From the IMG/VR virus record IMGVR_UViG_3300012138_000002, positions 1 to 37,329 of that record: DNA of 37,329 nucleotides; one strand, written 5' to 3'. A model generated the notes under the pieces. That model worked only from the letters and a program-made list of their open reading frames with translations, had not been told where the DNA came from and ran no database searches. Both the position numbers and the translations under genes were made by a program. Origin of the DNA: a virus. This document shows, piece after piece, positions 2,615-37,329 of this stretch (positions are counted from its first letter, which is position 1; every line of letters starts with the position of its first letter).

Positions 2615-3178
2615 TCATATTTTATCTTCATTCTTTTTCTGATTTTTCAGATCCTCCCGATCCAATTCCTTTTGATAAAAATGCCCTCTTAATACGATCA
2701 ATCCCAGACCTATAATATTTATAGTTGTCGTAGATAGAAGAACTATTGTTACTTGATAACCGATAGTTAGCTTGATATTCCATTTATCAAAAAGGCCTCC
2801 CTCTAACAGTAAAATGGCAAGGACAATCATTAAATATACAGATATTACATATTTAGCCCATTTCTCTAATCTTTTTCGGGCAGATGTATTTTCCATATGT
2901 CTATGCAGAGAAATAAACTGGGCGCATTTTTCTATTGTTTCTTTATTGTAAGACTGATCCGTTTGCAATAAAATCTCAACTTGACTTATTAAGTTTAAAT
3001 CTTTTTTAGGACGCACAGATCTTAGAGGAGAGCAAAAAAATCTTTTGATATTATACCAAACTTTAAAAGCGCCATGTCTCCAGGATATATTTATATCATT
3101 TTTCTTTGATTCAAAAAAATTGGTAAGACTGACATTTTCACTTATCCCAGGTTTAATATCTCCCGTGTCATTGTTCAT
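2615..3178 (-). CDS. Two-TM membrane protein, candidate toxin/effector partner of the Panacea-domain protein
   Basis: About 105 aa of soluble N-terminus is followed by the helices YVISVYLMIVLAILLLEGGL and VTIVLLSTTTINIIGLGLIVL and then a charged tail. The start overlaps the upstream gene by 11 nt. I recognised no family. Confidence 0.7.
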   Translation of the reverse strand: MNNDTGDIKPGISENVSLTNFFESKKNDINISWRHGAFKVWYNIKRFFCSPLRSVRPKKDLNLISQVEILLQTDQSYNKETIEKCAQFISLHRHMENTSARKRLEKWAKYVISVYLMIVLAILLLEGGLFDKWNIKLTIGYQVTIVLLSTTTINIIGLGLIVLRGHFYQKELDREDLKNQKKNEDKI

Positions 3179-3641
3179 ATTTGGGAAAATAGTTTTTTAT
3201 TAGATCGTCTGATATTTCTTTATTCCACTTCGCCTCTCCTTCTTCATATACCGTTTTATGCCATGGGCCGCCTTCCTGATGAGACCATTCACTCAGGCTC
3301 ATTGCTGATTTATTATGAAATTTTTTAACAACATCATTTATGATATTAAAAGCTATCCGGTCAGCTTCAAATTTATAAATAGGAAGACATGTCACATCGG
3401 GTATAACTCCCGGGGAAAAATATTTATTTACTCGTGGAAAAACCGGACCAAAGGGCCATGCTTTAGGTGAATCATCTGTGAAAAGTTTATTGTCAGTTGT
3501 GGAAAGATATGTGCCATATGCCATATATAGCAACTTTTGCATTTGAGTTTTATTCAGAGCGACTCCATGCTTATTGTATGCTATCCAATTTATCAGATCG
3601 GAGCATTCTAAGCTTGTAAGAGATAGAGTATTATTGCTCAT
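3168..3641 (-). CDS. panA: Panacea (DUF4065, SocA/GepA-like) domain protein, PanA-type antitoxin candidate
   Basis: TQMQKLLYMAYGTYLSTTDNKLFTDDSPKAWPFGPVFPRV matches the conserved L-Q-K-L-L-Y ... f-x-A-W-x-x-G-P-V core of DUF4065 (recalled). Confidence 0.8.
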   Translation of the reverse strand: MSNNTLSLTSLECSDLINWIAYNKHGVALNKTQMQKLLYMAYGTYLSTTDNKLFTDDSPKAWPFGPVFPRVNKYFSPGVIPDVTCLPIYKFEADRIAFNIINDVVKKFHNKSAMSLSEWSHQEGGPWHKTVYEEGEAKWNKEISDDLIKNYFPKYEQ

Positions 3642-3658
3642 ATAAAATATTGTTTCTG

Positions 3659-3689
3659 CAAAAATACATTTTAATTATTATAATACAAA
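3659..3689 (-). promoter_or_regulatory. Bacteroidota-type promoter for the panA operon
   Basis: On the minus strand, TATTTTTG (plus strand CAAAAATA, 3659-3666) is the -7 box and TTTG (plus strand CAAA, 3686-3689) is the -33 box. They are 19 nt apart. The -7 box lies 18 nt upstream of ATG 3641. Confidence 0.55.
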
Positions 3690-3849
3690 TACTTAACTCT
3701 CTTTTTTATTTTACATACTATCTGCAATTCTTTCCTTTTTCCCTGCAAATCCTGCCTTTTTATAGAAAAGTATCTTTTCCCAGACCTCCTTTGTTTATCG
3801 AATTTTGCAGTAACCGCGCTATTGCGGGTAACTAATAAATCTTATCGAT

Positions 3850-4713
3850 ATGGTAGAAACAAGAAATGAATCGATCGGCGGATACTACCCGGGAGCAGTG
3901 GGCGGTTACGGCGGCGGATTCGGTCATGACGGTATCCTGGGGCTTATCGCTCTATTGGCATTATTCAGAGGGAACCTTTTCGGAGGCAACCACGAAGGAG
4001 CGGGGGCGAACCTTGCCGAAATACAGAACCAGCTGAGCAATATCCGCGCTGATATCGGAGACGCCAAGTATGACAATCTTTCCGGCACATTGCAGCAGAC
4101 TATCGGCCTGTTAGGGGAGATAAACGCCGGGCGTCTGGAAAACATGAGCGCATTGCTGTCACAGACCAATGTCCTTCAGGGCGGTTTGTTCGGGTTGCAG
4201 AAAGATATTCTTCAATCGGCAAACGGCACCAATATGGCAATCGCTCAATCCACATTCGGACTTTCACGCCAGTTGGACGCCAACGCCGCTGCTGCGGCTG
4301 CCTGTTGCTGCGAGACTAACCTGAACCTGACCAAGCTAGGATATGAAAATATCATAGCTAACCTGAACCAGACAAACCAGCTTCAACGTCAGATGGATGC
4401 CAATGCTGCGGCCGCTGCCGCCTGTTGCTGCGAAACGAACCTGAATATCGAACGTACCGCGTTTGCTACCCAGCTTCGTGACCTGGAGAATAAATGTGAT
4501 ACCGACCGTCAGCTTGCCGAGATCAAGTGCCTTATCAAAGATACGGCTAAGGATCAGGAGTTAGCCCGTCTTTCAAGATTGGAAAGCGAAGCATTTATTG
4601 CTAACCAGATCAACAAGTCTATCAGCACTACCGTAGGCAGCTGGTCTGCCGCCGCGCAGTTCAACGGTGTGACTTACCCGAGCCCTCCGTTCCCGTTCTC
4701 CGGTGCATTTTGA
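3850..4713 (+). CDS. Hypothetical Gly-rich, membrane-anchored, coiled-coil-like protein with two DANAAAAAACCCETNLN motifs
   Basis: 287 aa. The N-terminus GGYGGGFGHDGILGLIALLALF is followed by Q/N/L-rich heptad-like sequence. A 19-codon motif occurs twice (4270-4326 and 4390-4446). I recognised no family. Confidence 0.8.
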   Translation: MVETRNESIGGYYPGAVGGYGGGFGHDGILGLIALLALFRGNLFGGNHEGAGANLAEIQNQLSNIRADIGDAKYDNLSGTLQQTIGLLGEINAGRLENMSALLSQTNVLQGGLFGLQKDILQSANGTNMAIAQSTFGLSRQLDANAAAAAACCCETNLNLTKLGYENIIANLNQTNQLQRQMDANAAAAAACCCETNLNIERTAFATQLRDLENKCDTDRQLAEIKCLIKDTAKDQELARLSRLESEAFIANQINKSISTTVGSWSAAAQFNGVTYPSPPFPFSGAF

Positions 4714-4734
4714 TTTGAAAGTTTTTCAGGTATG

Positions 4735-4761
4735 GGGGAGATTATTCTCCCCTGTTTTATT
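4735..4761 (+). terminator. Intrinsic terminator after the CCC-motif gene
   Basis: GGGGAGA (4735-4741) pairs with TCTCCCC (4746-4752) around a 4-nt loop, followed by TGTTTTATT. Confidence 0.75.
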
Positions 4762-4780
4762 AAACATTAAAAATTAAATT

Positions 4781-5188
4781 ATGTATCAATATAACAATCC
4801 GTTGCTATCCCAATACCAGGCGCAATTAAATTCGCTGAGGAATAAGTATAATGAGGAACTGAAGAATATACAGGAAGGTATACGCCGGGAAGAATCCAAC
4901 ATCAGGGGGCAATTCCAGGGAGCACCCGCCCCGCAGCCATCACCTGTGCAACAACCCGTGCCGGAACAACCTGCAACAGAAATGCAGCCTGTAATCATTC
5001 CGAACGATATAAAGATACTGGCCGTGCTGGGGGACATAAAAGGAATATTGGAGCGGGCTTTTCCGAAAGCGGAAGCCGCCGGCGAAACTGTTATCCAGCC
5101 GGAACCCGCTAAGGCTGATGTCCCCGAAGCAGCCGATGATGTAAAACCAGAACCTAAATTAAAGAAAAATGAAGGAACTAAAGGATAA
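4781..5188 (+). CDS. Hypothetical protein with a Pro/Gln-rich centre (135 aa)
   Basis: ATG ORF with a coiled-coil-like N-terminus followed by APAPQPSPVQQPVPEQP. No family recognised. Confidence 0.6.
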   Translation: MYQYNNPLLSQYQAQLNSLRNKYNEELKNIQEGIRREESNIRGQFQGAPAPQPSPVQQPVPEQPATEMQPVIIPNDIKILAVLGDIKGILERAFPKAEAAGETVIQPEPAKADVPEAADDVKPEPKLKKNEGTKG

Positions 5189-5339
5189 ACTCGAAACCGA
5201 ACTCAAGCAGCTGGAAGCGGAGATCCTCAAAGAAGGATTGACCGACAAGCGGCTGGATCTGCTTATCAGACTCGAAAAGGCAATACACCATCTCCCGGAG
5301 ATGAAAGGACATAACCCCTCAATGTTTGAAATGCCATGA
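5169..5339 (+). CDS. Small coiled-coil protein (56 aa, MKELKDKLETELKQLEAEILKEG...)
   Basis: ATG 5169 and TGA 5337-5339, which forms an ATGA overlap with the next gene. Below the track cutoff. Confidence 0.45.
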   Translation: MKELKDKLETELKQLEAEILKEGLTDKRLDLLIRLEKAIHHLPEMKGHNPSMFEMP

Positions 5340-5869
5340 ATAAGCAGGAAATAAAATCATTATTGCAGCAGGCTATGGATGCTATCAGTATGGCCCAATG
5401 CCTGGAAGAAGACCTGATGTGCAAGGCACAAAGGATAGGGCTTCAGGGGGAGAAACGCAGGCAACGCTATGAGAGCGCCAAATCGTACAACCTTATCAAG
5501 TACCTCAAATGTGATGCTTTCGACGCCTACGGGATAGAACTGGAGCATAAGGCCGGTACGGCTCCCGCACAGCAGATAGGAGGTATGAAGGGATATTTCG
5601 ACGTATTCCTGAATAAGCAGGAGCAGCTATACGATGTACTGCATACCATCGCTAACAAGCTGGTAGCGGTTAACTGCCAGTATTACGCCAAATTGCTGTA
5701 TGACAAATGCGCCTGTATCGTTGAGGATATAAAATATGCAAGGCGGACAATTCTTGAGGGCAACCTTGTGAACTGGGCTCCTGAGTTTATCCTGCTGCAT
5801 CAGACCACCTTAGAGAATGTGCATGACCATTTCGAGGAAAAAGAAAAGGAAGTCGGCTACAACTATTAG
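5336..5869 (+). CDS. Hypothetical protein (177 aa)
   Basis: ATG ORF coupled to both neighbours. No motif recognised. Confidence 0.65.
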   Translation: MNKQEIKSLLQQAMDAISMAQCLEEDLMCKAQRIGLQGEKRRQRYESAKSYNLIKYLKCDAFDAYGIELEHKAGTAPAQQIGGMKGYFDVFLNKQEQLYDVLHTIANKLVAVNCQYYAKLLYDKCACIVEDIKYARRTILEGNLVNWAPEFILLHQTTLENVHDHFEEKEKEVGYNY

Positions 5870-6134
5870 CTGGGAGCGGTGCAAGGCTTTTTTCGGGTAC
5901 CGCTGCGCTTATTGCGGTAAAGCCGGCAAAATGACAAAAGACCATATCATACCCCGCTATCATGGCGGCGGGGATATGGTCTTGAATCTTATCCCGGCCT
6001 GCCAGTCCTGCAATTCATCCAAGGGTAAAAAGAATGTAGACAGCTGGTACCGGGGACAGCCCTTTTACTCACCCTTCAGGGAGCAGCTGATCCGGCAATA
6101 TTTAATTGAAATCTCTTTAAAACTTATAAGATGA
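5817..6134 (+). CDS. HNH endonuclease
   Basis: CAYCGK...DHIIPRYHGGGDMVLNLIPACQSCNSSKG is the C-x-x-C ... D-H ... N ... C-x-x-C-N HNH layout. The gene overlaps the upstream gene by 53 nt if ATG 5817 is used. Confidence 0.85.
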   Translation: MCMTISRKKKRKSATTISWERCKAFFGYRCAYCGKAGKMTKDHIIPRYHGGGDMVLNLIPACQSCNSSKGKKNVDSWYRGQPFYSPFREQLIRQYLIEISLKLIR

Positions 6135-6460
6135 TACATACATTAGCATTACATTTATTGTTTACCGTGATAATAAGCCTGTCCTGTATCGGGATAAACG
6201 CTACCACATGGCGGGATATGGTATTTGCCGGACTGGCTGACAGGATAGAGAAGTATATTACCGGGCTGATAGGGCTTGAGGCGGGTTGCGCCCTGTGTAA
6301 ACCTTTGTTCCGTTGCCCTATGTGCATGGCCAGTTTCTGGACGCTCCTGTTCTGGCTCATCTGCGGGATGGTATTTAATCCGGTGTTGATGATGCTGACC
6401 GTGTGCGGCCTGAATGTGGTACTGGTGAGTTTTATTGTAAATATTATGCCCGATGAATAA
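6131..6460 (+). CDS. Small multi-TM membrane protein with paired CxxC motifs (DUF1360-like?)
   Basis: Hydrophobic helices flank GCALCKPLFRCPMCMASFW. ATGA overlap with the HNH gene. The DUF1360 resemblance is a weak recollection. Confidence 0.65.
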   Translation: MIHTLALHLLFTVIISLSCIGINATTWRDMVFAGLADRIEKYITGLIGLEAGCALCKPLFRCPMCMASFWTLLFWLICGMVFNPVLMMLTVCGLNVVLVSFIVNIMPDE

Positions 6461-6572
6461 GGAAGATATATTAAAAGAAATAAACGCCCTGATCGACCGT
6501 CTGGAGGATGCATGCGGGGCGGATATTAATCAGATGATAGAACGGTTGAAAAAACTGGTGGGGATGTTGTAG
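6453..6572 (+). CDS. Possible very small protein (39 aa, MNKEDILKEINALIDRLEDA...)
   Basis: ATG 6453 overlaps the upstream stop and TAG is at 6570-6572. Helical and charged composition. Confidence 0.3.
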   Translation: MNKEDILKEINALIDRLEDACGADINQMIERLKKLVGML

Positions 6573-9446: not shown

Positions 9447-9526
9447 CGGACTGCTTTCTTTATTACCAAGTGTTTGTGGCAATTTATTAATTATTCAATT
9501 ATAAAACCATTCAAACATTAAAGATT

Positions 9527-9742
9527 ATGAGTCTTATATCGAGAGAAGAGTTGAAGGGAATGAAGCCGGGGGATAATATTATCCTTAAATGGTCTCACCC
9601 GAGTGAAGCAGTGAGCACGCAGTCGCTATGCAGCCACATTTCTATGAATTGTCCTGAACTTAATTTAAGGCTTCGGACAAAAAAGAACCGTCAGAAACAA
9701 ACTATTACCATAACAGCCGAAAGAAAGGAGGATAAGTTATGA
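9527..9742 (+). CDS. Hypothetical early protein (71 aa)
   Basis: ATG ORF. It is the first gene after the early promoter and has an ATGA overlap with the next gene. Confidence 0.55.
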   Translation: MSLISREELKGMKPGDNIILKWSHPSEAVSTQSLCSHISMNCPELNLRLRTKKNRQKQTITITAERKEDKL

Positions 9743-10289
9743 AAGAATTAGTTTACGACAACGGAAGCGGCCAGCCGGTAACCGATAGCTTGCGGGTGGC
9801 AATGAAATTTAGGAAAGAACATAAAAATGTAATCAGGGATATCAGAGAATTATTGAGGACGGCTCAAAATTGCGCCGTCCTCGAAAAGAGAGAAGCAGTA
9901 AAGGCTATGTTCGTGGAATCCACTTATTTAAATGAGCAGAATAAAGAACAACCTATGTTCATCATGACCGATCCGGCTTTTCTCTCTTAGCTATGGGTTT
10001 TACCGGTCAGAAAGCTTTTGAGTTTAAGACTGATTTTCTGTTTGCATTCCAGCGACAGAATAAACTTCTGAACGACCTTATCAACAACCAGCTCAAATTA
10101 GCCCGTGAGAGTGCGGAACAAAGGCTATTGATATCTAACCGGATTCTGGAAATAGATAAAACGGTAAAAAGTGTAATGAAGGAGCGCGGTGATTTGGTAA
10201 AGGCTCTTAATAAGATAGACCGCTCCGACTTCTTGCAATTGAGTATTCCTCTGATATTGGAAAGCGAATCTAAAAAGCAGAAAAAATGA
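9739..10289 (+). pseudogene. Rha-family phage regulatory protein split by a 1-nt frameshift (track ORFs 9739-9990 and 9993-10289)
   Basis: VTDSLRVAMKFRKEHKNVIRDIREL is the Phage_pRha N-terminal motif. The conserved MT-R-x-GF-x-LLAMGFTGxKA block is divided between frame 1 (..PMFIMT) and frame 0 (RSGFSLLAMGFTGQKAFEFK, read from 9969). Confidence 0.65.
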
Positions 10290-20165: not shown

Positions 20166-20669
20166 ATGGCGGCTCCTAAAAAAAATACATATTGGAAACT
20201 TGCGAAAGGTTTCGCAGTGGGTAAAGACAAAAAGTATACTCCCGCTGAATTATGGAAACTTGCTCTTAGTTATTTCAATTGGGTGGATAGCACACCTTTG
20301 AAGGAAGAAAAAGTATTCGGTACCGGGATAAGGATGGAAGTAAATAAAATGCGCGCGATGACCATCAGAGGCTTTTGCCTGCATGCCGGAATATCCTCTC
20401 AAACATTTGATAATTATAATAATCAGGATGAATACCGGGATGTTACAACTCGTATAAAGGATATTATCTATGTTTATAAATTCGAAGGAGCGGCGGCCGG
20501 CTTGCTGGATGTGAATATTATAGCTAGGGAATTGGGATTATCCGATAAAGTAGAATCTCAAATAACCGGTAAAGACGGCAAAGATTTACGGCTTAATCTC
20601 ATGATAAAACCTACGTCTCTGCCTTGTAAGACTACTTTAATCAATAGTGAGAATGAAATCGAATTATGA
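20166..20669 (+). CDS. terS: Terminase small subunit
   Basis: MAAPKKNTYW...YTPAELWKLALSYFNW...MTIRGFCLHAGISSQTFDNY is an HTH-like N-terminal pattern typical of small terminases. The gene is immediately upstream of and overlapping terL. Confidence 0.7.
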   Translation: MAAPKKNTYWKLAKGFAVGKDKKYTPAELWKLALSYFNWVDSTPLKEEKVFGTGIRMEVNKMRAMTIRGFCLHAGISSQTFDNYNNQDEYRDVTTRIKDIIYVYKFEGAAAGLLDVNIIARELGLSDKVESQITGKDGKDLRLNLMIKPTSLPCKTTLINSENEIEL

Positions 20670-21849
20670 CATATCAGAAAAGGATCCTTTGTTTTTTGCC
20701 AATCATGAAGCAAAAGAAAGGGTAATTGTAAATCAGGGAGGCACTTCAAGTGGCAAAACCTATACCATCCTTGATTTGCTTTTTATAATAGCCACATCAG
20801 AACCGGATCAGGTTATTACTGTTGTTGGCCAAGACATACCGAACCTTAAAAAAGGAGCTTACAGGGATGCAAAAATGATATATGAAAAATCTGAAATTTA
20901 TCAACAATGGTTCTATAAGCCAAATGAAACGGACAGGCGCTTTACCTGCATCAATAGGTCTATTATTGAATTTACAAGCTATTCGGATGAGCAGGACGCG
21001 AAAAGCGGTAAACGCGATTATCTTTTTGTAAACGAGGCTAACGGTATCCCATATAACATATATCAGAGACTGGAGGAAAGGACATATAAAAAAATATACC
21101 TCGATTATAATCCGTCTGCCCGTTTCTGGGTGCATGAGGAATTGATAGGTAAGCCTGATGTTAAGCTTATCATATCGGATCATAGAAACAACCCTCATTT
21201 ATCTGAAGATACACATCAACGCATAGAGTCATATACGGGTGAACGTTTTAAAGTCTATTCCCGCGGATTAACGGGTAAAATGGACGGTCTTATTTACTCT
21301 AATTGGGTGTTATGTGAATCAATGCCGGAAATATATAAGATGCGTTATATCGGCCTGGACTTCGGATTTACGAATGATCCTACGGCGATTATTGATGTGC
21401 GAGTGTCAAATGGCGAGTTGTGGTTAGATGAGTTATGCTATCGAACAGGGCTTACCAATCCCGATATATCAGACGTATTAAAAGAAAACGGAATATACGG
21501 TAATGTTAATATAGTGGCTGATAGCGCGGAGCCTAAGAGTATAGCAGAACTTCAAAATCTGGGGCATCGCGTAGAGGGGGCTAACAAGGGGCCTGATAGC
21601 ATAAAAAACGGGATCGATATCTTGCAACGTTACAAATTGAATGTTACACGCCGGAGCCTGGGCATCCGAAAGGAATTAGGAGCTTATGAATGGAAAAAGA
21701 ATAAAAACGGAATTTTCGTAAATGAGCCTATCGGTGAATTCAATCATGCGTTAGATGCTATCCGATATGTCGCATTGAATAAATTGAGGAAACAACGTAA
21801 AGGTAAATATCCTAAAGTATCAACATCTGAATATTATACAACGATATGA
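20653..21849 (+). CDS. terL: Terminase large subunit (PBSX/Terminase_3-like)
   Basis: Walker A GGTSSGKTY and Walker B-like LFVNEA. Nuclease motifs GLDFGFTNDPTA, VADSAEPKSI and HALDAIRY. The track start 20647 is GTG and the first ATG is 20653. Confidence 0.9.
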   Translation: MKSNYDISEKDPLFFANHEAKERVIVNQGGTSSGKTYTILDLLFIIATSEPDQVITVVGQDIPNLKKGAYRDAKMIYEKSEIYQQWFYKPNETDRRFTCINRSIIEFTSYSDEQDAKSGKRDYLFVNEANGIPYNIYQRLEERTYKKIYLDYNPSARFWVHEELIGKPDVKLIISDHRNNPHLSEDTHQRIESYTGERFKVYSRGLTGKMDGLIYSNWVLCESMPEIYKMRYIGLDFGFTNDPTAIIDVRVSNGELWLDELCYRTGLTNPDISDVLKENGIYGNVNIVADSAEPKSIAELQNLGHRVEGANKGPDSIKNGIDILQRYKLNVTRRSLGIRKELGAYEWKKNKNGIFVNEPIGEFNHALDAIRYVALNKLRKQRKGKYPKVSTSEYYTTI

Positions 21850-26762: not shown

Positions 26763-29441
26763 ATGGCAGAAAATACAAATACGACAACCGAAGTAGTAGA
26801 TGTTAAGGCAAACTATGAAGAGGCTCTTAGTGGAATAGCCAAATTCAATAGGGAAATTGAACTGTTACAAGCCCATCAGGCTAAATTAAAAGAAGAGCTT
26901 AAGAAAGGAGCGATAAATTCTACAGAATACGGCCAAGCGATGGCAAGGGCGAAGGTTGATATAATCAGTGCGAAGGATAGTGTCCGCTTACTCGAAAAAG
27001 AGATTCGGAACAATATAAAAATAGAACGGGAACAGGAAGGCAGTTTAAAACAGTTAGAGGCTCGATTATCGAAGGCAACAGCAGAATACCGAAATATGTC
27101 AAAGGCCGTAAGAGAATCGGCAGAAGGTAAGGATTTGGCACGGAGTATTAATGAAATTACAACTGAACTAAGCAAGGCAGAACAGGGAATACAGCTATTT
27201 TACAGAAATGTCGGGAATTATAAAGAATCAATTACAAGTGCATTGGCAGGTAATAATCAGTTTGCAGCATCGATATTACAGACAGCAGCATCAGCGGGTA
27301 CAGCCGGCGGAGCATTCAAGGCGCTAGGGTCACAAGTTGCGGCATTCGGAAAGACATTGATGAGTTTGTTGATGAATCCTATTGTTTTAATGATAGCTGC
27401 GATTGTGGCAGTAGTAGTATCATTATCAAAAGCTTTCTCAACGAATGAAGAGAATACAAATAAGCTCTCAATAGTAATGAGTAAGATATCCAGCGTATTT
27501 AGTTATTTATTGAAAGTATTAGAGCCTATAGCCGGCTTCATATTTGACGTACTTATCAAATCGTTTGAGCAATTGACAGCAATAGCAGAAACTGCATTGA
27601 CCGTTCTTTCTAACACTTTGGGGGCTCTTGGCTTTGACAAGGCATCAAAAGCAGTAAGTGATTTCACCTCCGGATTAAAAGAGCAATCTAAAGCAGCTAC
27701 TGATTTAGTCAAGACACAACAACTGTTGATTAAACTGAACAGGGAACAAGTGACTAGGAATGCCGAAATAGAATCAGCATTGCAGAATGTTACTAATGCT
27801 ATGAATAAAGAAGGGATATCAACCTCTGAAAAGATAAAACTTCTCAAACAGGAAGCCGAGTTAAACAAAGAGAAAGCGAGGATGGCTTTAAAAATAGCCC
27901 TTGCAACGAAACAAGCCGCTGAACTTGAAATACAAGTGCATGGCAGAACAAAAGAAGCTCTGGACGCTTTAGCTCAAGCAACGGCAGGGGTAACATTGGC
28001 AACGGCTGCATTAGGTGAGGCATATCATAAAGAAAATGCTAATATAGCGGCTGCCAATAAAGAGGCTATTGCAAAAGCCAAAGAAAGAAGTGAAGCCGAA
28101 TTAAAGGCACACAGAGACCTTGAAGATAGTTTATTAAGGCTTCTGAAAGATGAAGGAGCCAAACAGATCGCAGCTACCGAACAGAATTATAACAGGCAAA
28201 TCGAAGATTTAAAAAAACGATTGAAGGAAGAGAAGAATTTAACTGAAAAAGCCCGCAAGGATATAAACGCAACAATTGTAAATCTCGAAAAGGAGAGAGA
28301 TAATGCGACGGCCGATCTGTGGGAAAAATTTTCGAGCGATGCATTAAAGAAACAGGCCGATATAGAATTGACCAATCTGAACAACAGGCTGGCCGCTATT
28401 AAAACCGAAGGTGAAGAAAGTCTTAAACTAAGGCTGGATATCTTAACCAGACAGCACGATGCGGAAATCAGGGAAGCAGAAAAGACCGGGATTGATGTAG
28501 CCGCTATCCGTGCCAAATACGCTAAACTGGCAGCTGATGAAGAAAAGAAGATAAATGATGCCGCTCTAAATCAGGCTAAATCCGAGAGGGAATTAAAACT
28601 TCAAAATGACATAGCTGCATTACAATTAGCCAATAAACAAACTTTTGATGTCAGGATTGCTGCCAAGCAAAAAGAAATAGACAGCTTACAGCAAAAAGAA
28701 GGCGAGAGTGACGCCATGTTCTTGGAAAGAACGCGTAGTCTGAATATTGAAATAGCCGCCCTTCAGAAAGAAAGGACGGACTATGCAAAAGCGCAAATGG
28801 AGGCAAATGTATTGGCTACAGCTAATATGTTCGGGGCTTTCTCCGATCTATTGGAACAATTCGCTGAACAAAACGAGGCTATGGCTGTATTTTCCAAAGC
28901 GACGGCACTCTTTGAAATATTATTGTCTACCGGGGTTGCGATATCCAAGGGGATAGCAGCGGCACAAGCAGCGGGACCTTTCCCGGCTAATATAGCGGCT
29001 ATAGCTACCACGGTAGCGGCTATTGTATCAGGTATAGCCAGTGCCACACAAATAGTAAAGAAAGCGAAAGAGCCTACGGCTACAGGTACATCGTCTGTGT
29101 CGTCCGGAGGAAGTGTGAGCTATTTCAGTGAGGGCGGCCTTGTGGATGGTCCCGGTACCGGAACCTCCGATAGCGTTCCCGCCATGCTATCCAACGGGGA
29201 ATATGTAATGACGGCGCGGGCGACAAATATGTTTGCTCCTTTACTATCAGCATTGAATCAAATAGGAGCAGGTGTACCCATAAGTACATCCGGAGCGCTG
29301 GGACAAGCATATGATACAACAGCGATAGGTAAAATAATTGCAAAGGAAATGGGGAACATGCCTACTCCTGTTGTTCGTGTTACGGAGATCAATAATGTAC
29401 AAAACCGGGTGAAAGTGCTGGAGTCAGATGCCACAGTTTAA
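26763..29441 (+). CDS. Tail tape measure protein
   Basis: 892 aa with long coiled-coil stretches and Gly/Ala-rich hydrophobic segments (AGTAGGAFKALG..., IVLMIAAIVAVVVSL). The C-terminal GPGTGTSDSVPAMLSNGEYVMTA motif is common in tape measure proteins. Confidence 0.8.
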   Translation: MAENTNTTTEVVDVKANYEEALSGIAKFNREIELLQAHQAKLKEELKKGAINSTEYGQAMARAKVDIISAKDSVRLLEKEIRNNIKIEREQEGSLKQLEARLSKATAEYRNMSKAVRESAEGKDLARSINEITTELSKAEQGIQLFYRNVGNYKESITSALAGNNQFAASILQTAASAGTAGGAFKALGSQVAAFGKTLMSLLMNPIVLMIAAIVAVVVSLSKAFSTNEENTNKLSIVMSKISSVFSYLLKVLEPIAGFIFDVLIKSFEQLTAIAETALTVLSNTLGALGFDKASKAVSDFTSGLKEQSKAATDLVKTQQLLIKLNREQVTRNAEIESALQNVTNAMNKEGISTSEKIKLLKQEAELNKEKARMALKIALATKQAAELEIQVHGRTKEALDALAQATAGVTLATAALGEAYHKENANIAAANKEAIAKAKERSEAELKAHRDLEDSLLRLLKDEGAKQIAATEQNYNRQIEDLKKRLKEEKNLTEKARKDINATIVNLEKERDNATADLWEKFSSDALKKQADIELTNLNNRLAAIKTEGEESLKLRLDILTRQHDAEIREAEKTGIDVAAIRAKYAKLAADEEKKINDAALNQAKSERELKLQNDIAALQLANKQTFDVRIAAKQKEIDSLQQKEGESDAMFLERTRSLNIEIAALQKERTDYAKAQMEANVLATANMFGAFSDLLEQFAEQNEAMAVFSKATALFEILLSTGVAISKGIAAAQAAGPFPANIAAIATTVAAIVSGIASATQIVKKAKEPTATGTSSVSSGGSVSYFSEGGLVDGPGTGTSDSVPAMLSNGEYVMTARATNMFAPLLSALNQIGAGVPISTSGALGQAYDTTAIGKIIAKEMGNMPTPVVRVTEINNVQNRVKVLESDATV

Positions 29442-32990: not shown

Positions 32991-34175
32991 GTGAGGGTAA
33001 GCACATTAAAAGGCCTCGAACCGAGGTTCAGCGCGCCGAATATCAAAAATCTGGGTATTCAGGCCTGGGGAGATGATAATTTATACCCCCAGAATATTTC
33101 AAAAGTCATCTCATCAAGTGATTCAGGCGTGTTGTGTCTTAACCGATATATCGATTTTATTGCCGGGAACGGATTTGAGAATGAAGTATTTTCCGGTATG
33201 GATGTGAATTTTTTCGGAGACACCGCGGATGACCTGTTACAGATGCTGGCTTATGATGTCGCAAACTATAACGGTTTAGCTATCCATGTCAATTACAACA
33301 TACTTGGCAAAATAGTATCTATGCAGCACGTCCCGTTTGAAAACTGTAGGCTCGGAGAGCTGGATGAGTTTGGAGGTATTTCCAAAATAGCCGTATTTCC
33401 TGATTGGGAAGGTGTAAAAACCTATGCAGGCAAAAAGATGCGTCCTACCCCCGAAAATGTAGACTATATTGATATTTTCAACCCGGAACCCGAATTTGTA
33501 AAAGCGCAGATCGAATTAGCCGGAGGGATAGATAAATATAACGGTCAGATTCTTTGGGTCAGTGCAGCCGGAAGGCACGTATATCCGGCTGCAAAATATG
33601 ATACTGTCGTAAGCTATTTAAGTTGTGAGGATGCATTGGGTAATATCTCTAACAGGAATTTAAAATATGGCCTTTTTTCAGCGGGTATGCTTTTGGTTCG
33701 AAAAGGTTCTGATACTCCGGAAGCCGGGGATTCATTCAGTGATATAGAAGAGGCTGTAAAAAGGCTGCAAGGAGATCAAAAATGCCAGAATATAGCAGTT
33801 GCTGAATATGAGCAGGAGGAAGACAAGCCTGAATTTGTCTCTTTCAGGGGTGAAAACTATGATAAAGAATTCACTGTGACCAGCCAGAACGCGACAGAAC
33901 GCATTTATGCCGCATTCTCCCAGGAATCATTTTATCGGATACGGCAAGGGTCAGTAGGTTTTAATTCGGAGATGATCGCGGATGCTTTTGAATTATACAG
34001 TACCACAACATCCACGCAAAGGCGGATGATAGAACGGGCGTTAGATAAAATTGTTGTAAACTGGCATATTCCTATAAGCGAAAACAATACAGCTATATCT
34101 CCATTGAAATATGAATCGATAAATAAAGATAAAAATGAAATATTATCTACTAACAATGCCGGAATTAAGGGATAA
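32991..34175 (+). CDS. Putative portal protein (394 aa, GTG start)
   Basis: The size and the N-terminal QAWGDDNLYPQNISKVISSSDSGVLCLNRYIDFIAGNGF resemble small portal proteins (weak recollection). No other portal candidate is evident. Confidence 0.4.
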   Translation: MRVSTLKGLEPRFSAPNIKNLGIQAWGDDNLYPQNISKVISSSDSGVLCLNRYIDFIAGNGFENEVFSGMDVNFFGDTADDLLQMLAYDVANYNGLAIHVNYNILGKIVSMQHVPFENCRLGELDEFGGISKIAVFPDWEGVKTYAGKKMRPTPENVDYIDIFNPEPEFVKAQIELAGGIDKYNGQILWVSAAGRHVYPAAKYDTVVSYLSCEDALGNISNRNLKYGLFSAGMLLVRKGSDTPEAGDSFSDIEEAVKRLQGDQKCQNIAVAEYEQEEDKPEFVSFRGENYDKEFTVTSQNATERIYAAFSQESFYRIRQGSVGFNSEMIADAFELYSTTTSTQRRMIERALDKIVVNWHIPISENNTAISPLKYESINKDKNEILSTNNAGIKG

Positions 34176-35822: not shown

Positions 35823-37329
35823 TTTCAAAGATAGGTACTTTTCAGCCAGTGGAGCTGATTTGCTTAGAACGATGAATTATGTCTACTTCTTTTCACCATC
35901 GTATATTGGTGGCGACGGCTCAAGATTAGCTCCATATAGAAGTAATTATTATTACGCTCCCAGAGGTACCACCGGGTTACAAGCGACATCCGCGCTTATA
36001 TTCAGCGGTGGTGTACATAAAGGAACTTTTGATTTGGGTAGTACCGTTTCTACATACAGGCATTTTACCGGTAATGGGATGGGTGTAACAATATTAGGCC
36101 TTTCTATAAACCAACAAGCTCCAATATCCGGTGGAAATAGTTCTACAGCATATTTTAGAGATGTAACGTTGTCTGAATTAATACATTATATTTCAGGATA
36201 TAATGGTATTAACCATTATATTTATTTTTATAATTGTGAGTTTTTAACAGCTCCCGCTATAACTACAACTGCACTTAGTACTGTATATAGTTATGTTACC
36301 AGATCTAAAATAAAAGAATTATTATCCGGCGGAACTATAACTTATCAGAATAATAATTCATTTATAGGCATAAGTACTACAATAAGTTCAATAGCGGGCA
36401 ACCTGCATACATTTGAAAGATGTAACCTTATAATTAATCAGGCTTCACTCGACAGTTACAAGAACAATTACTATGCGTTCGATAACTGCAACTTCCGTAT
36501 AGGCACGGAAACGGAATATACACCGCTTATTGGCGCAACGGCCGAAGTACTAAGGGAAACTTTTGTAAACAGATGCATAGCTGCCGGGCTGACAGTGCCT
36601 GCCGATATTACGGACTATAATATCACATTACCCCTGGGTCGCTGGATTTTTACCACAAACCAGATATTCGAGGGTATTACATGGCATGGCTCGGAAATTA
36701 ATCTGTTTGAGATACCCCGTTTTATCTCATTTGGTTATTCGACTACCAGGGGCACTAAGATACCGATTGTTGCAGGCAACAATACTCCTGCAAGTATTTT
36801 CCCCAACGCTCAAGGTAGCGTTGGATTGATATTTGGAGATGATTCTTTATCTATTGCTTCGAATATCGATATCACGCAAAGGCACGAATTAGTTACAGAG
36901 TCCAAAATAATATGGCTGGGTGGTAAAAAGAAGCTGACCAACATCGACGTGCCGAACAATATGTCGCAATTGTACGGCGTACTGATAGACAGCCTGCCCA
37001 ACCTCGTCGATAAAGAAGCGAATAATATTGTCGAAGCAGGTGAGATGTATATGGTGCGCTCTTTAAATGAAAATGCGGCGTCCATTATCTATAACGGAAA
37101 TACCTATTCTTCCGAGCTAAGTACAAGGAACAATATTTTCAAAGGTGTGGCCGGTGTGAATTCATATACTTTTGCATCAGGCAGTCCGGCAGTCTATAAG
37201 ATAAATGATATACTGAATTACCAGTCGATACAGCTGCGTATTGTGAATAAGATACCGCCGGATATCATTACATCGGGAAACCTGCTGGCAAACTACTGGT
37301 ATCTGGTAGAGCATGACAGCGACCAGACC
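35809..37329 (+). CDS. N-terminal part of the junction-spanning putative tail fibre/tailspike (full length 644 aa = 35809-37206 plus 1-537)
   Basis: ATG 35809. I translated phase 1 by eye to the window end and saw no stop. It is absent from the track because no stop lies inside the window. The short repeats YFYNCEF, FERCNLII and FDNCNFRI suggest a beta-helix. Confidence 0.8.
   Translation, partial: MTQFNFKDRYFSASGADLLRTMNYVYFFSPSYIGGDGSRLAPYRSNYYYAPRGTTGLQATSALIFSGGVHKGTFDLGSTVSTYRHFTGNGMGVTILGLSINQQAPISGGNSSTAYFRDVTLSELIHYISGYNGINHYIYFYNCEFLTAPAITTTALSTVYSYVTRSKIKELLSGGTITYQNNNSFIGISTTISSIAGNLHTFERCNLIINQASLDSYKNNYYAFDNCNFRIGTETEYTPLIGATAEVLRETFVNRCIAAGLTVPADITDYNITLPLGRWIFTTNQIFEGITWHGSEINLFEIPRFISFGYSTTRGTKIPIVAGNNTPASIFPNAQGSVGLIFGDDSLSIASNIDITQRHELVTESKIIWLGGKKKLTNIDVPNNMSQLYGVLIDSLPNLVDKEANNIVEAGEMYMVRSLNENAASIIYNGNTYSSELSTRNNIFKGVAGVNSYTFASGSPAVYKINDILNYQSIQLRIVNKIPPDIITSGNLLANYWYLVEHDSDQT
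37207..37329. repeat. Direct terminal repeat, copy 2 (123 nt)
   Basis: Exact copy of 1-123. It is either an assembly overlap of a circular molecule or a true short DTR. Confidence 0.95.

Follow-up and report, generated by a model that had tools for sequence, protein, structure and literature searches.

Several described systems resemble parts of the element analysed here. In TRI-type designed peptides a layer of cysteines faces the core of a parallel bundle, and tetrabrachion forms a right-handed hendecad coiled coil. The dispensable head fibres of phages, such as phi29 gp8.5 (~280 residues) and crAss001 gp21 and gp29, are helical and non-essential, while classical morons such as lambda bor and lom combine a promoter-like element and a terminator with atypical composition, patchy presence and a position at the edge of a late operon. 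In i-spanins an N-terminal transmembrane domain is combined with coiled coils, and inter-chain disulfides are required for function (PMC6139136). The gene under study, g1, occupies positions 3850-4713 of the IMG/VR virus record IMGVR_UViG_3300012138_000002, whose 37,329 nucleotides were analysed as a whole and are called the window below (features lie on the forward strand unless the reverse strand is named). It encodes a 287-residue protein that begins MVETRNESIGGYYPGAVGGYGGGFGHDGILGLIALLALF and bears cysteine triplets on a long predicted rod. It belongs to PHROG clusters that are catalogued but undescribed, and we file it as an accessory, moron-like membrane or coiled-coil protein.

The g1 protein and its family

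Profile comparisons place g1 in a large superfamily, restricted to phages, which joins phrog_9288 and phrog_16490. A word-indexed search with g1 returned 63 homologues, all of them unnamed and lacking a Pfam domain, and a profile search of 1.84 billion representatives extended these to 886 clusters (at 50% identity) at E<=1e-3, or 224 at E<=1e-10, nearly all of them 240-340 residues long. In hmmscan g1 itself matches phrog_9288 (E 1.1e-8, residues 15-164), phrog_16490 (4.5e-5) and phrog_8119 (1.5e-3). Among the more distant relatives 93 of 107 map to phrog_16490, and the enterobacterial ones are phrog_9288 (E 2.5e-124). Alignment of the window family against the enterobacterial family in hhalign gave a probability of 97.4% (E 9e-12) over the CCCETN block. 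All three clusters share both the architecture and the CCCETN block with g1. They differ from it in that they are unannotated clusters of which g1 represents a divergent two-rung Bacteroidota branch, and in its partners, which are g2-g4 here and phrog_9157, phrog_8329 and phrog_7239 there. The family had not been recognised by the sequence-only reading, and PSI-BLAST/HHpred-type searching led solely to these unannotated clusters. A Pfam scan of the 107 distant relatives produced sporadic coiled-coil noise, a PDB profile search with g1 gave only weak Mce and TrwJ coiled-coil matches, and no description of the motif or the operon was found in literature searched by PHROG identifiers and for coiled coils of phages with triple cysteines.

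The family is widely distributed. Searches of cultured phages by tblastn with g1 and with its homologue P0041 found no match, and it was the more distant relatives P0063 and P0057 (the latter sharing AAAACCCETNLNIERQG) that led to crass-like and enterobacterial phages. Many Crassvirales genomes encode distant members, as do Bacteroides phage C3_41T2LP and records that bear the label of Methanomassiliicoccales viruses. Relatives, always annotated as "hypothetical", are carried by at least 230 cultured enterobacterial phages (T1-like, 9g-like and PY100), among them Hanrivervirus (KarlJaspers/Bas06, pSf-1), Nonagvirus (JenP2, JenK1), Sashavirus, Yersinia phage PY100 and Edwardsiella phage eiAU. 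The suggestion that the motif is a matter of Bacteroidota prophages was therefore too narrow. In the enterobacterial phages the g1-like gene heads a four-gene operon, phrog_9288-9157-8329-7239, with no annotated function. The second gene of this operon in JenP2 (L019, 6564-6929) encodes a His/Glu-rich patch, GEHHTEEHHEHDKLHARDHE, which hints that phrog_9157 in this phage might bind metal. In T5-like Epseptimavirus the g1-like gene appears truncated, split in two or unannotated, as in Salmonella phage polluks (L021, 4791-5426), and this suggests that the cassette is decaying there.

An AlphaFold2 model of g1, built with 42 homologues (mean predicted local distance difference test, pLDDT, 72.7), outlines the protein from end to end. 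The N-terminal tail (codons 1-27, 3850-3930) is Gly/Tyr-rich and slightly acidic, with a net charge of -1 to -3 across the family, and is predicted to be disordered (pLDDT <50 for residues 1-26). The next part is the short hydrophobic helix GILGLIALLALF, after which stands the nearly invariant Arg40 (codons 28-40, 3931-3969; modelled as a helix over residues 29-44). This is a putative membrane anchor, in which A34, L35, L36 and R40 are >=90% conserved among close homologues. A Gly-rich N-terminus with a hydrophobic helix had been noted from the sequence, and both are present, but the hydrophobic stretch covers just ~12 residues and, with a maximal 19-residue Kyte-Doolittle mean of 1.63, is borderline as a membrane span. 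Two short modelled helices then lead to the rod, a single unbroken helix of ~177 residues (codons 96-272, 4135-4665; pLDDT 70-87), which would be ~26 nm long if straight. The C-terminal tail (codons 268-287, 4651-4710) is conserved and aromatic/Pro-rich, AAQFNGVTYPSPPFPFSGAF. The architecture is fixed across the family, consisting of a Gly-rich N-tail, a hydrophobic helix of 12-16 residues, a CCC-bearing hendecad helix of ~180 residues and a C-tail rich either in aromatics and proline or in cysteine, and g1 has each of these parts.

The body of the protein had been described as heptad-like, and on this point the periodicity gives another answer. Hydrophobicity in the rod of the window protein peaks at 3.63 residues per turn, and when 128 family members were averaged after anchoring on the conserved CCC, the power was 35-38 at 3.64-3.67 residues per turn against 2.3 at 3.5. 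The core stripe runs through positions -7, -3, +1, +4, +8, +12, +15, +19 and so on, a 4-4-3 pattern which defines a hendecad (11/3) instead of a heptad. The middle cysteine of the triplet lies on this hydrophobic stripe, 21 degrees from the hydrophobic moment, and the outer two flank it. A test of phase coherence over all cysteine residues was uninformative, as triplets blur the phase.

The cysteine triplet, whose recurrence the sequence-only reading had proposed to count, is the hallmark of the family: CCC is carried by 62 of the 63 close and 128 of the 135 distant homologues (190/198 in all). Among close homologues C194 is invariant and C192 and C193 are >=90% conserved, and among the 107 distant members the four nearly invariant columns are Met1, one glycine and two cysteines. 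The family-wide core reads CCC-(E/D/Q)-T-(N/Q)-x-x-(I/V)-x-x-x-(G/A)-(F/Y/H). Proteins have from none to five triplets, most often one (138/198), with two in 31 and none in eight. Cysteine clusters within a protein are separated by 22, 29, 33, 40, 44, 66 or 73 residues, and of 115 cluster pairs 47 are spaced by multiples of 11 and 2 by multiples of 7, with most of the others at n x 11 + 7; the sequences counted include relatives of one another and the events are not independent, although seven different spacing classes fit the rule. Such spacings are whole numbers of helical turns, so that all rungs face one way. In the window protein the two rungs are 40 residues apart, which is 33 + 7, or 11 turns. 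The median cysteine content of the family is 3.0% and the maximum 9%, a CGCGC or CCCC extension ends 45 of the 198 relatives, and in some members His/Asp patches such as HDGHTGHHGGDCCC adjoin the cysteine clusters.

In g1 the triplet occurs within a twin 19-codon motif, Q(L/M)DANAAAAAACCCETNLN, whose copies lie 120 nucleotides apart. Copy 1, QLDANAAAAAACCCETNLN, at 4270-4326, places C152-C154 at 4303-4311 and forms a lineage-variable rung, found in a subset of relatives (P0002, P0003, P0014, P0020, P0044/45). Copy 2, QMDANAAAAAACCCETNLN, at 4390-4446, places C192-C194 at 4423-4431 and forms the family-wide rung, with which the conserved block CCCETNLNIERTAFATQLRDLENKC...C begins. The copies differ at 11 of 57 nucleotides, ten of them synonymous third positions and one a first position (L to M). 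Between g1 and its 82%-identical orthologue P0002, 145 of 287 codons differ synonymously and 39 non-synonymously. The silent divergence between the copies (10 of 19 codons) equals this gene-wide level, so the duplication is old and the peptide is under purifying selection; the proposal that the twin motif is kept as peptide and not as DNA was reproduced in its coordinates and substitutions and agrees with the P0002 comparison. P0002's own two copies show just five silent differences, and conversion between copies may thus have happened on occasion. Selection on the whole motif needs narrowing: the core CCC-E-T-N-x-N-I-E-R is family-wide, but just the window/P0001/P0002 clade has the full twin with the run of six alanines in each copy, and elsewhere Q-I-x-D precedes the second rung. 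Judged by its codon substitutions and family conservation, the open reading frame at 3850-4713 is a real, selected gene.

The cassette, its signals and its mobility

Gene g1 had been taken to stand alone. It instead leads a conserved and compositionally distinct cassette, g1-g2-g3-g4-HNH-g6, at 3850-6460. The order g1-g2-g3-g4 recurs, with or without HNH and g6, in seven other loci (L001, L002, L004, L005, L010, L014 and L015), where g2 has 94-154, g3 56-135 and g4 177-184 residues. Overall G+C is 0.525 in g1 and 0.39 in the whole window; at third codon positions it is 0.58 in g1 and 0.56-0.58 in g1, g3, g4, HNH and g6, with 0.46 in g2 and 0.24-0.47 in almost all other genes measured. The claim that g1 is richer in G+C than its flanks therefore holds for the raised value, but the compositional island is a block of six genes (3800-6500) and not g1 alone.

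The transcription signals listed in the sequence-only reading were located. Upstream of g1 lies an AT-rich divergent intergenic region of 208 nucleotides (3642-3849) with a -7-like box, GAATTTTG, at 3800-3807, which fits the Bacteroidetes -7 consensus TAnnTTTG but for the first T (5/6 match); no properly spaced -33 TTTG was present upstream of g1. At consensus level, a TAnnTTTG box is found ~44-45 nucleotides before the ATG in L001 and L004 as well. A weak GC hairpin in the 5' untranslated region (3814-3827) has a stem of 4 base pairs and was rejected as too small to count as a feature. Right after the g1 stop codon a GC-rich hairpin with a 10-base-pair stem (4732-4755) is followed by TTTATT (the whole spanning 4732-4761), forming a putative intrinsic terminator or attenuator. 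A hairpin and T-run occupy this place in 6 of 7 loci (the window, L001, L002, L004, L005 and L006, not L007) with non-homologous stems, and we read the element as a conserved attenuator that would raise expression of g1 over its partners. In three other loci (L002, L005 and L010) a near-identical 12-nucleotide palindrome (GTCGATATTGAC, GTCAATATTGAC and GTCAATAATGAC, respectively), absent from the window, lies ~30 nucleotides upstream of the start of the g1 homologue and could be an operator for the upstream helix-turn-helix protein. No RNA feature came up when the window was scanned with Rfam and for tRNAs.

The partners of g1 are small proteins. The 135-residue g2 (4781-5188) starts with a coiled-coil segment, which is followed by a linker rich in P/Q, the amphipathic helix ILAVLGDIKG and a tail rich in Lys/Glu, an architecture kept in nine loci; searches gave no family match for it and it has no signal peptide. 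The small helical g3 (56 residues, 5169-5339) is also conserved in nine loci, and its first 20 nucleotides are shared with the end of g2, as they are in L001, L002, L004, L005, L009 and L010 (seven loci with the window); the overlap is absent from L014 and is 59 nucleotides in L015. Homology of g2 or g3 to the enterobacterial phrog_7239, considered for a shared AVLG motif, was rejected (hhalign probability <1%).

The 177-residue g4 (5336-5869) is predicted as a four-helix bundle of ferritin fold (AlphaFold2 pLDDT 88.5, predicted template modelling score 0.83). The matches listed by Foldseek against the PDB are almost all ferritins, with a probability of 1.00 and TM-scores up to 0.77-0.83, and the predicted model has the features of a ferritin-like protein, namely the four-helix bundle, the long crossover loop and the short fifth helix. 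The sequence has no match in Pfam or the PDB. Its invariant polar residues are E39, R41, R42, Y45, D60, D63, H103, N107, R137, E141, H163, D164, E167 and E170; judged from sequence and not from coordinates, the canonical di-iron E/ExxH ligands are not evident and there is no ExxH pair. It may belong to a ferritin-like clade that has gone unrecognised and is peculiar to this phage cassette.

The HNH endonuclease gene (5817-6134; PF01844, E 1.8e-12) overlaps the 3' end of g4 by 53 nucleotides. It is present in L002 with the same overlap and in L014 and L015, and is absent from L001 and L004; it looks like a homing-endonuclease insertion and could help the cassette to spread. The last gene, g6 (109 residues, 6131-6460), encodes a small polytopic membrane protein with GCALC-x6-CPMC at the membrane boundary and accompanies the cassette in L002, L004 and L015. 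Its family is tiny (6 homologues without annotation), and L004 keeps just the CxxCxSxW part. PADLOC, with its models of anti-phage defence, gave no match for g1, g2, g3, g4, g6 or their neighbours.

In most loci a small helix-turn-helix gene lies directly upstream of g1, and its family varies: DnaA_C-like in L002, L004 and C3_41T2LP, HTH_17 in L005 and cr116_1, and sigma70 region-4-like in L009. The likely cognate in the window is a 72-residue helix-turn-helix gene at 2317-2535 with a weak HTH_Mga match, which is parted from g1 by a reverse-strand toxin-antitoxin pair. This low-GC pair (0.32-0.36; 2615-3641) appears inserted between the two. It comprises a SocA/Panacea-domain antitoxin, PanA (3168-3641, reverse strand), and an overlapping 187-residue protein with C-terminal membrane helices (2615-3178, reverse strand), and is a putative PanA-PanT module.

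Comparison of the window with the other loci, several of which include head or tail genes, shows that g1, g2, g4, HNH and g6 match while TerL, portal, protease, capsid and tail proteins do not, which indicates that the cassette moves between phages that are otherwise unrelated. Searched against phages by megablast, the structural half of the window gave no match. In the crass-like phage cr116_1 the module sits between homologues of crAss001 gp30 (endolysin) and gp31, and crAss001 lacks it: cr116_1 (L012, 5969-9236) has a ~3.3-kb extra block relative to crAss001 (L013, 16405-18271), containing a helix-turn-helix gene, a gene for a small HExxH protein, the g1-like gene and four small genes; of the small products of the block two are HExxH metallopeptidase-like and others are beta-rich or coiled-coil. 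The KarlJaspers operon is flanked by ssb on one side and the lateral tail fibre locus on the other, whereas in the related vB_EcoS-95 ssb directly adjoins the fibre gene and there is no operon. In myovirus PY100, ORF29-32 point rightward and stand as an island among non-structural genes that point leftward, and by the published gene order the operon is outside the structural module (PMC3391216).

The locus thus has the atypical composition and the presence/absence among related phages that mark a moron, as a multi-gene unit. The moron-like layout proposed from the sequence stands as to accessory status and composition, with signals that are promoter-like and terminator-like, but the mobile unit is not a single gene. 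It also differs from classical morons in its occurrence in strictly virulent phages (T1-like and crass-like), and so g1 is not simply a lysogenic-conversion gene.

Proposed role of g1 and the alternatives

What does the rod do? As a tentative proposal, which we regard as possible and not as probable, g1 would be a non-virion, membrane-inserted, self-associating rod with thiol rungs, used for exclusion or permeabilisation. The hydrophobic stripe is narrow and would be buried only by self-association of the rods. Were the bundle parallel and in register, stacking of the rungs would give thiol rings, and these would clamp the chains via inter-chain disulfides or a shared metal ion. The core-facing cysteine layers of TRI-type peptides and the 11-residue periodicity of tetrabrachion offer a parallel, which is one of analogy and not of homology to the g1 family. 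The N-terminal hydrophobic helix would target the host cytoplasmic membrane, and not the virion, as the partner common to all carriers. The anchor is nearly identical across phages with unrelated capsids and tails, which argues for a universal partner, and we infer this to be the host membrane. We favour the membrane over the virion because the N-segment is unchanged, because three virion morphotypes carry the gene and because the PY100 operon is outside the structural module. In the most speculative step, g1 would act in the infected or lysogenic cell as an oligomeric membrane rod that alters the envelope, serving either competition between phages (by superinfection exclusion or a block to entry) or permeabilisation of the membrane. 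Lineage-specific small partners, g2-g4 in the window, would assemble or regulate the rod, and the terminator after g1 would set a high ratio of g1 to partners.

One may go further and see in the cysteine-triplet rods an undescribed class of effectors: thiol-laddered hendecad coiled coils that would insert a glycine-rich helix bundle in the membrane, with assembly or gating set by the redox or metal state of the Cys3 rings, on a mobile operon exchanged between phages of Enterobacteria and Bacteroidota, crass-like phages included. We put this forward as a conjecture that is unlikely to hold in full.

Several observations weigh against the proposal of a membrane rod. The hydrophobic helix is short (~12 residues), lacks flanking basic clusters and contains prolines in some relatives, and it is not certain to be a true membrane span. 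Its orientation is ambiguous, since Arg40 and the acidic N-tail suggest N-out/C-in, while the N-tails of 45-60 residues in crass-type members fit N-in better. There is no match to g1 in Pfam, NCBIfam, PADLOC or the PDB and no homologue has an experimental annotation; when the g1 model was compared with PDB and BFVD in Foldseek, the matches were generic helical bundles, none at E<=1e-3. The partner genes are not detectably homologous between lineages, and an operon mechanism common to them is uncertain. Finally, g1 often lies beside tail-fibre or lysis genes, a position that also fits a virion or a lysis role.

The first of these roles survives best among the alternatives, although we think it improbable. 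Here g1 would be a virion fibre or decoration protein, docked in the capsid or tail by its Gly-rich N-terminus, with the 26-nm coiled coil projecting and the cysteine rungs stabilising it covalently outside the cell. The GenBank labels "outer capsid protein/viral fiber" and "spike protein/glycoprotein" on crass-type homologues point this way; they are similarity-derived and without experimental support. The gene is often downstream of tail-fibre genes, and in the T1-like metagenomic contig L006 a 96-residue protein (9501-9791) with the YVLPAAT..GGVKKA motif of crAss001 gp21 and phi29 gp8.5 is encoded directly upstream of the g1-like gene. The dispensable head fibres resemble g1 in length (gp8.5), helical build, non-essential character and, in some crass-type genomes, neighbourhood. 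The terminator after g1 suggests high expression, like that of structural proteins, decoration proteins are typically accessory, and crAss001 virions hold disulfide-reinforced proteins (PMC10172136). Set against this, the membrane-like N-segment of g1 is conserved nearly to identity where capsid, portal and tail proteins share no detectable similarity, and the family spans siphoviruses, a myovirus and crass-type podoviruses, with the PY100 operon placed as described above (PMC3391216). A helix of the LIALLALF type would be unusual in a soluble fibre, and neither Foldseek (PDB and BFVD) nor the PDB profile search found a fold or sequence match of g1 to any fibre, head fibres included. The published virion proteome of vB_EcoS-95 (PMC6340994) concerns a phage without a g1-like gene and is uninformative here. 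The expectation that g1 would not turn out to be an ordinary known virion component was borne out in that no characterised relative was found.

A second alternative, to which we give little credence, makes g1 a cytoplasm-facing scaffold for metal or redox chemistry. With the N-terminus out and the C-terminus in, the Cys3 rings, His/Asp patches and CGCGC tails would bind metal or a cluster of the Fe-S type, together with g4 and g6. The positive-inside rule favours this orientation, given the nearly invariant Arg40 and the acidic N-tail, and g2, g3 and g4 have no signal peptides. The ferritin fold of g4, the GCALC...CPMC of g6 and the His-rich phrog_9157 partner in JenP2 would suit metal handling, as would a cysteine content of up to 9%, metallothionein-like C-tails in 45/198 members and HDGHTGHHGGDCCC-type patches in some. 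The details of the partners do not follow suit, however: g4 has no canonical ferroxidase E/ExxH pattern and is missing from L009 and from the crass-type and enterobacterial operons, the second CxxC of g6 is not kept in L004, and no metal-binding family matched any protein of the cassette.

The lysis role is very doubtful. As an accessory of the i-spanin or TolA type, g1 would be N-in/C-out, its coiled coil would span the periplasm with inter-chain disulfides as in lambda Rz, and its aromatic/Pro-rich C-terminus would contact the outer membrane and so assist in disrupting the envelope. The width of the periplasm is close to ~26 nm, near the length of the rod, and in the window, L004, L009 and cr116_1 the lysis genes come shortly before g1. 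Like i-spanins of the Rz type it has an N-terminal hydrophobic anchor, a coiled coil and cysteines suited to disulfides. It differs from them in being about twice as long, in its hendecad repeat and triple cysteines, and in being accessory among close relatives, which spanins are not. In the T1-like phages (KarlJaspers-type) and PY100 the operon is remote from the lysis cassette. The anchor is a stretch of ~12 residues whose flanking charge, if anything, favours C-in. Two defining features then fail the spanin reading. No lipoprotein partner or o-spanin accompanies g1, as g2 and g3 have neither signal peptide nor lipobox and no lipoprotein signal is found in the two open reading frames that g1 contains (3866-4036 and 4169-4324); and the same genomes already encode a full holin/endolysin/u-spanin-like set (736-2166 in the window). 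A role as holin was rejected, there being no holin family match to g1 and a Phage_holin_4_1 protein already at 736-1347 beside the M15 endolysin.

The remainder of the window and the meaning of the family

The ends of the window are identical (1-123 = 37207-37329), so that it represents a circular and complete phage genome of ~37.2 kb, or a circularly permuted one. Its lysis genes are a holin (736-1347), an M15 endolysin (1328-1753) and a 138-residue protein (1750-2166), whose lipoprotein-like signal LLLLCAGC, beta-rich middle and C-terminal transmembrane helix amount to the architecture of a unimolecular spanin (u-spanin). Homologues of this protein have lysis-type genes nearby in L004 and immediately precede the holin gene in cr116_1. 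The order of the late genes is unusual, with the large terminase (20647-21849, 400 residues) ~11 kb from the portal (32991-34175). Between them are an 892-residue protein (26763-29441) with tape-measure-like and endolysin-like matches, a protease and a probable capsid gene.

The g1 family is abundant, with its 886 clusters. Its carriers include T1-like BASEL phages, 9g-like phages, PY100 and crass-like phages, and every copy bears the name "hypothetical" or a misleading similarity label. It is uncommon for a triple cysteine to be nearly universal in a family and to sit on the core stripe of an 11/3 helix, and the feature is sharply defined; the in-register rungs point to thiol chemistry of a specific kind (a disulfide clamp or a metal site) in an accessory protein of phages. 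Carriers infect E. coli K-12, and the function is therefore directly testable. Establishing it would annotate hundreds of phage genomes at once and could reveal a new form of envelope manipulation or of inter-phage competition in the gut.

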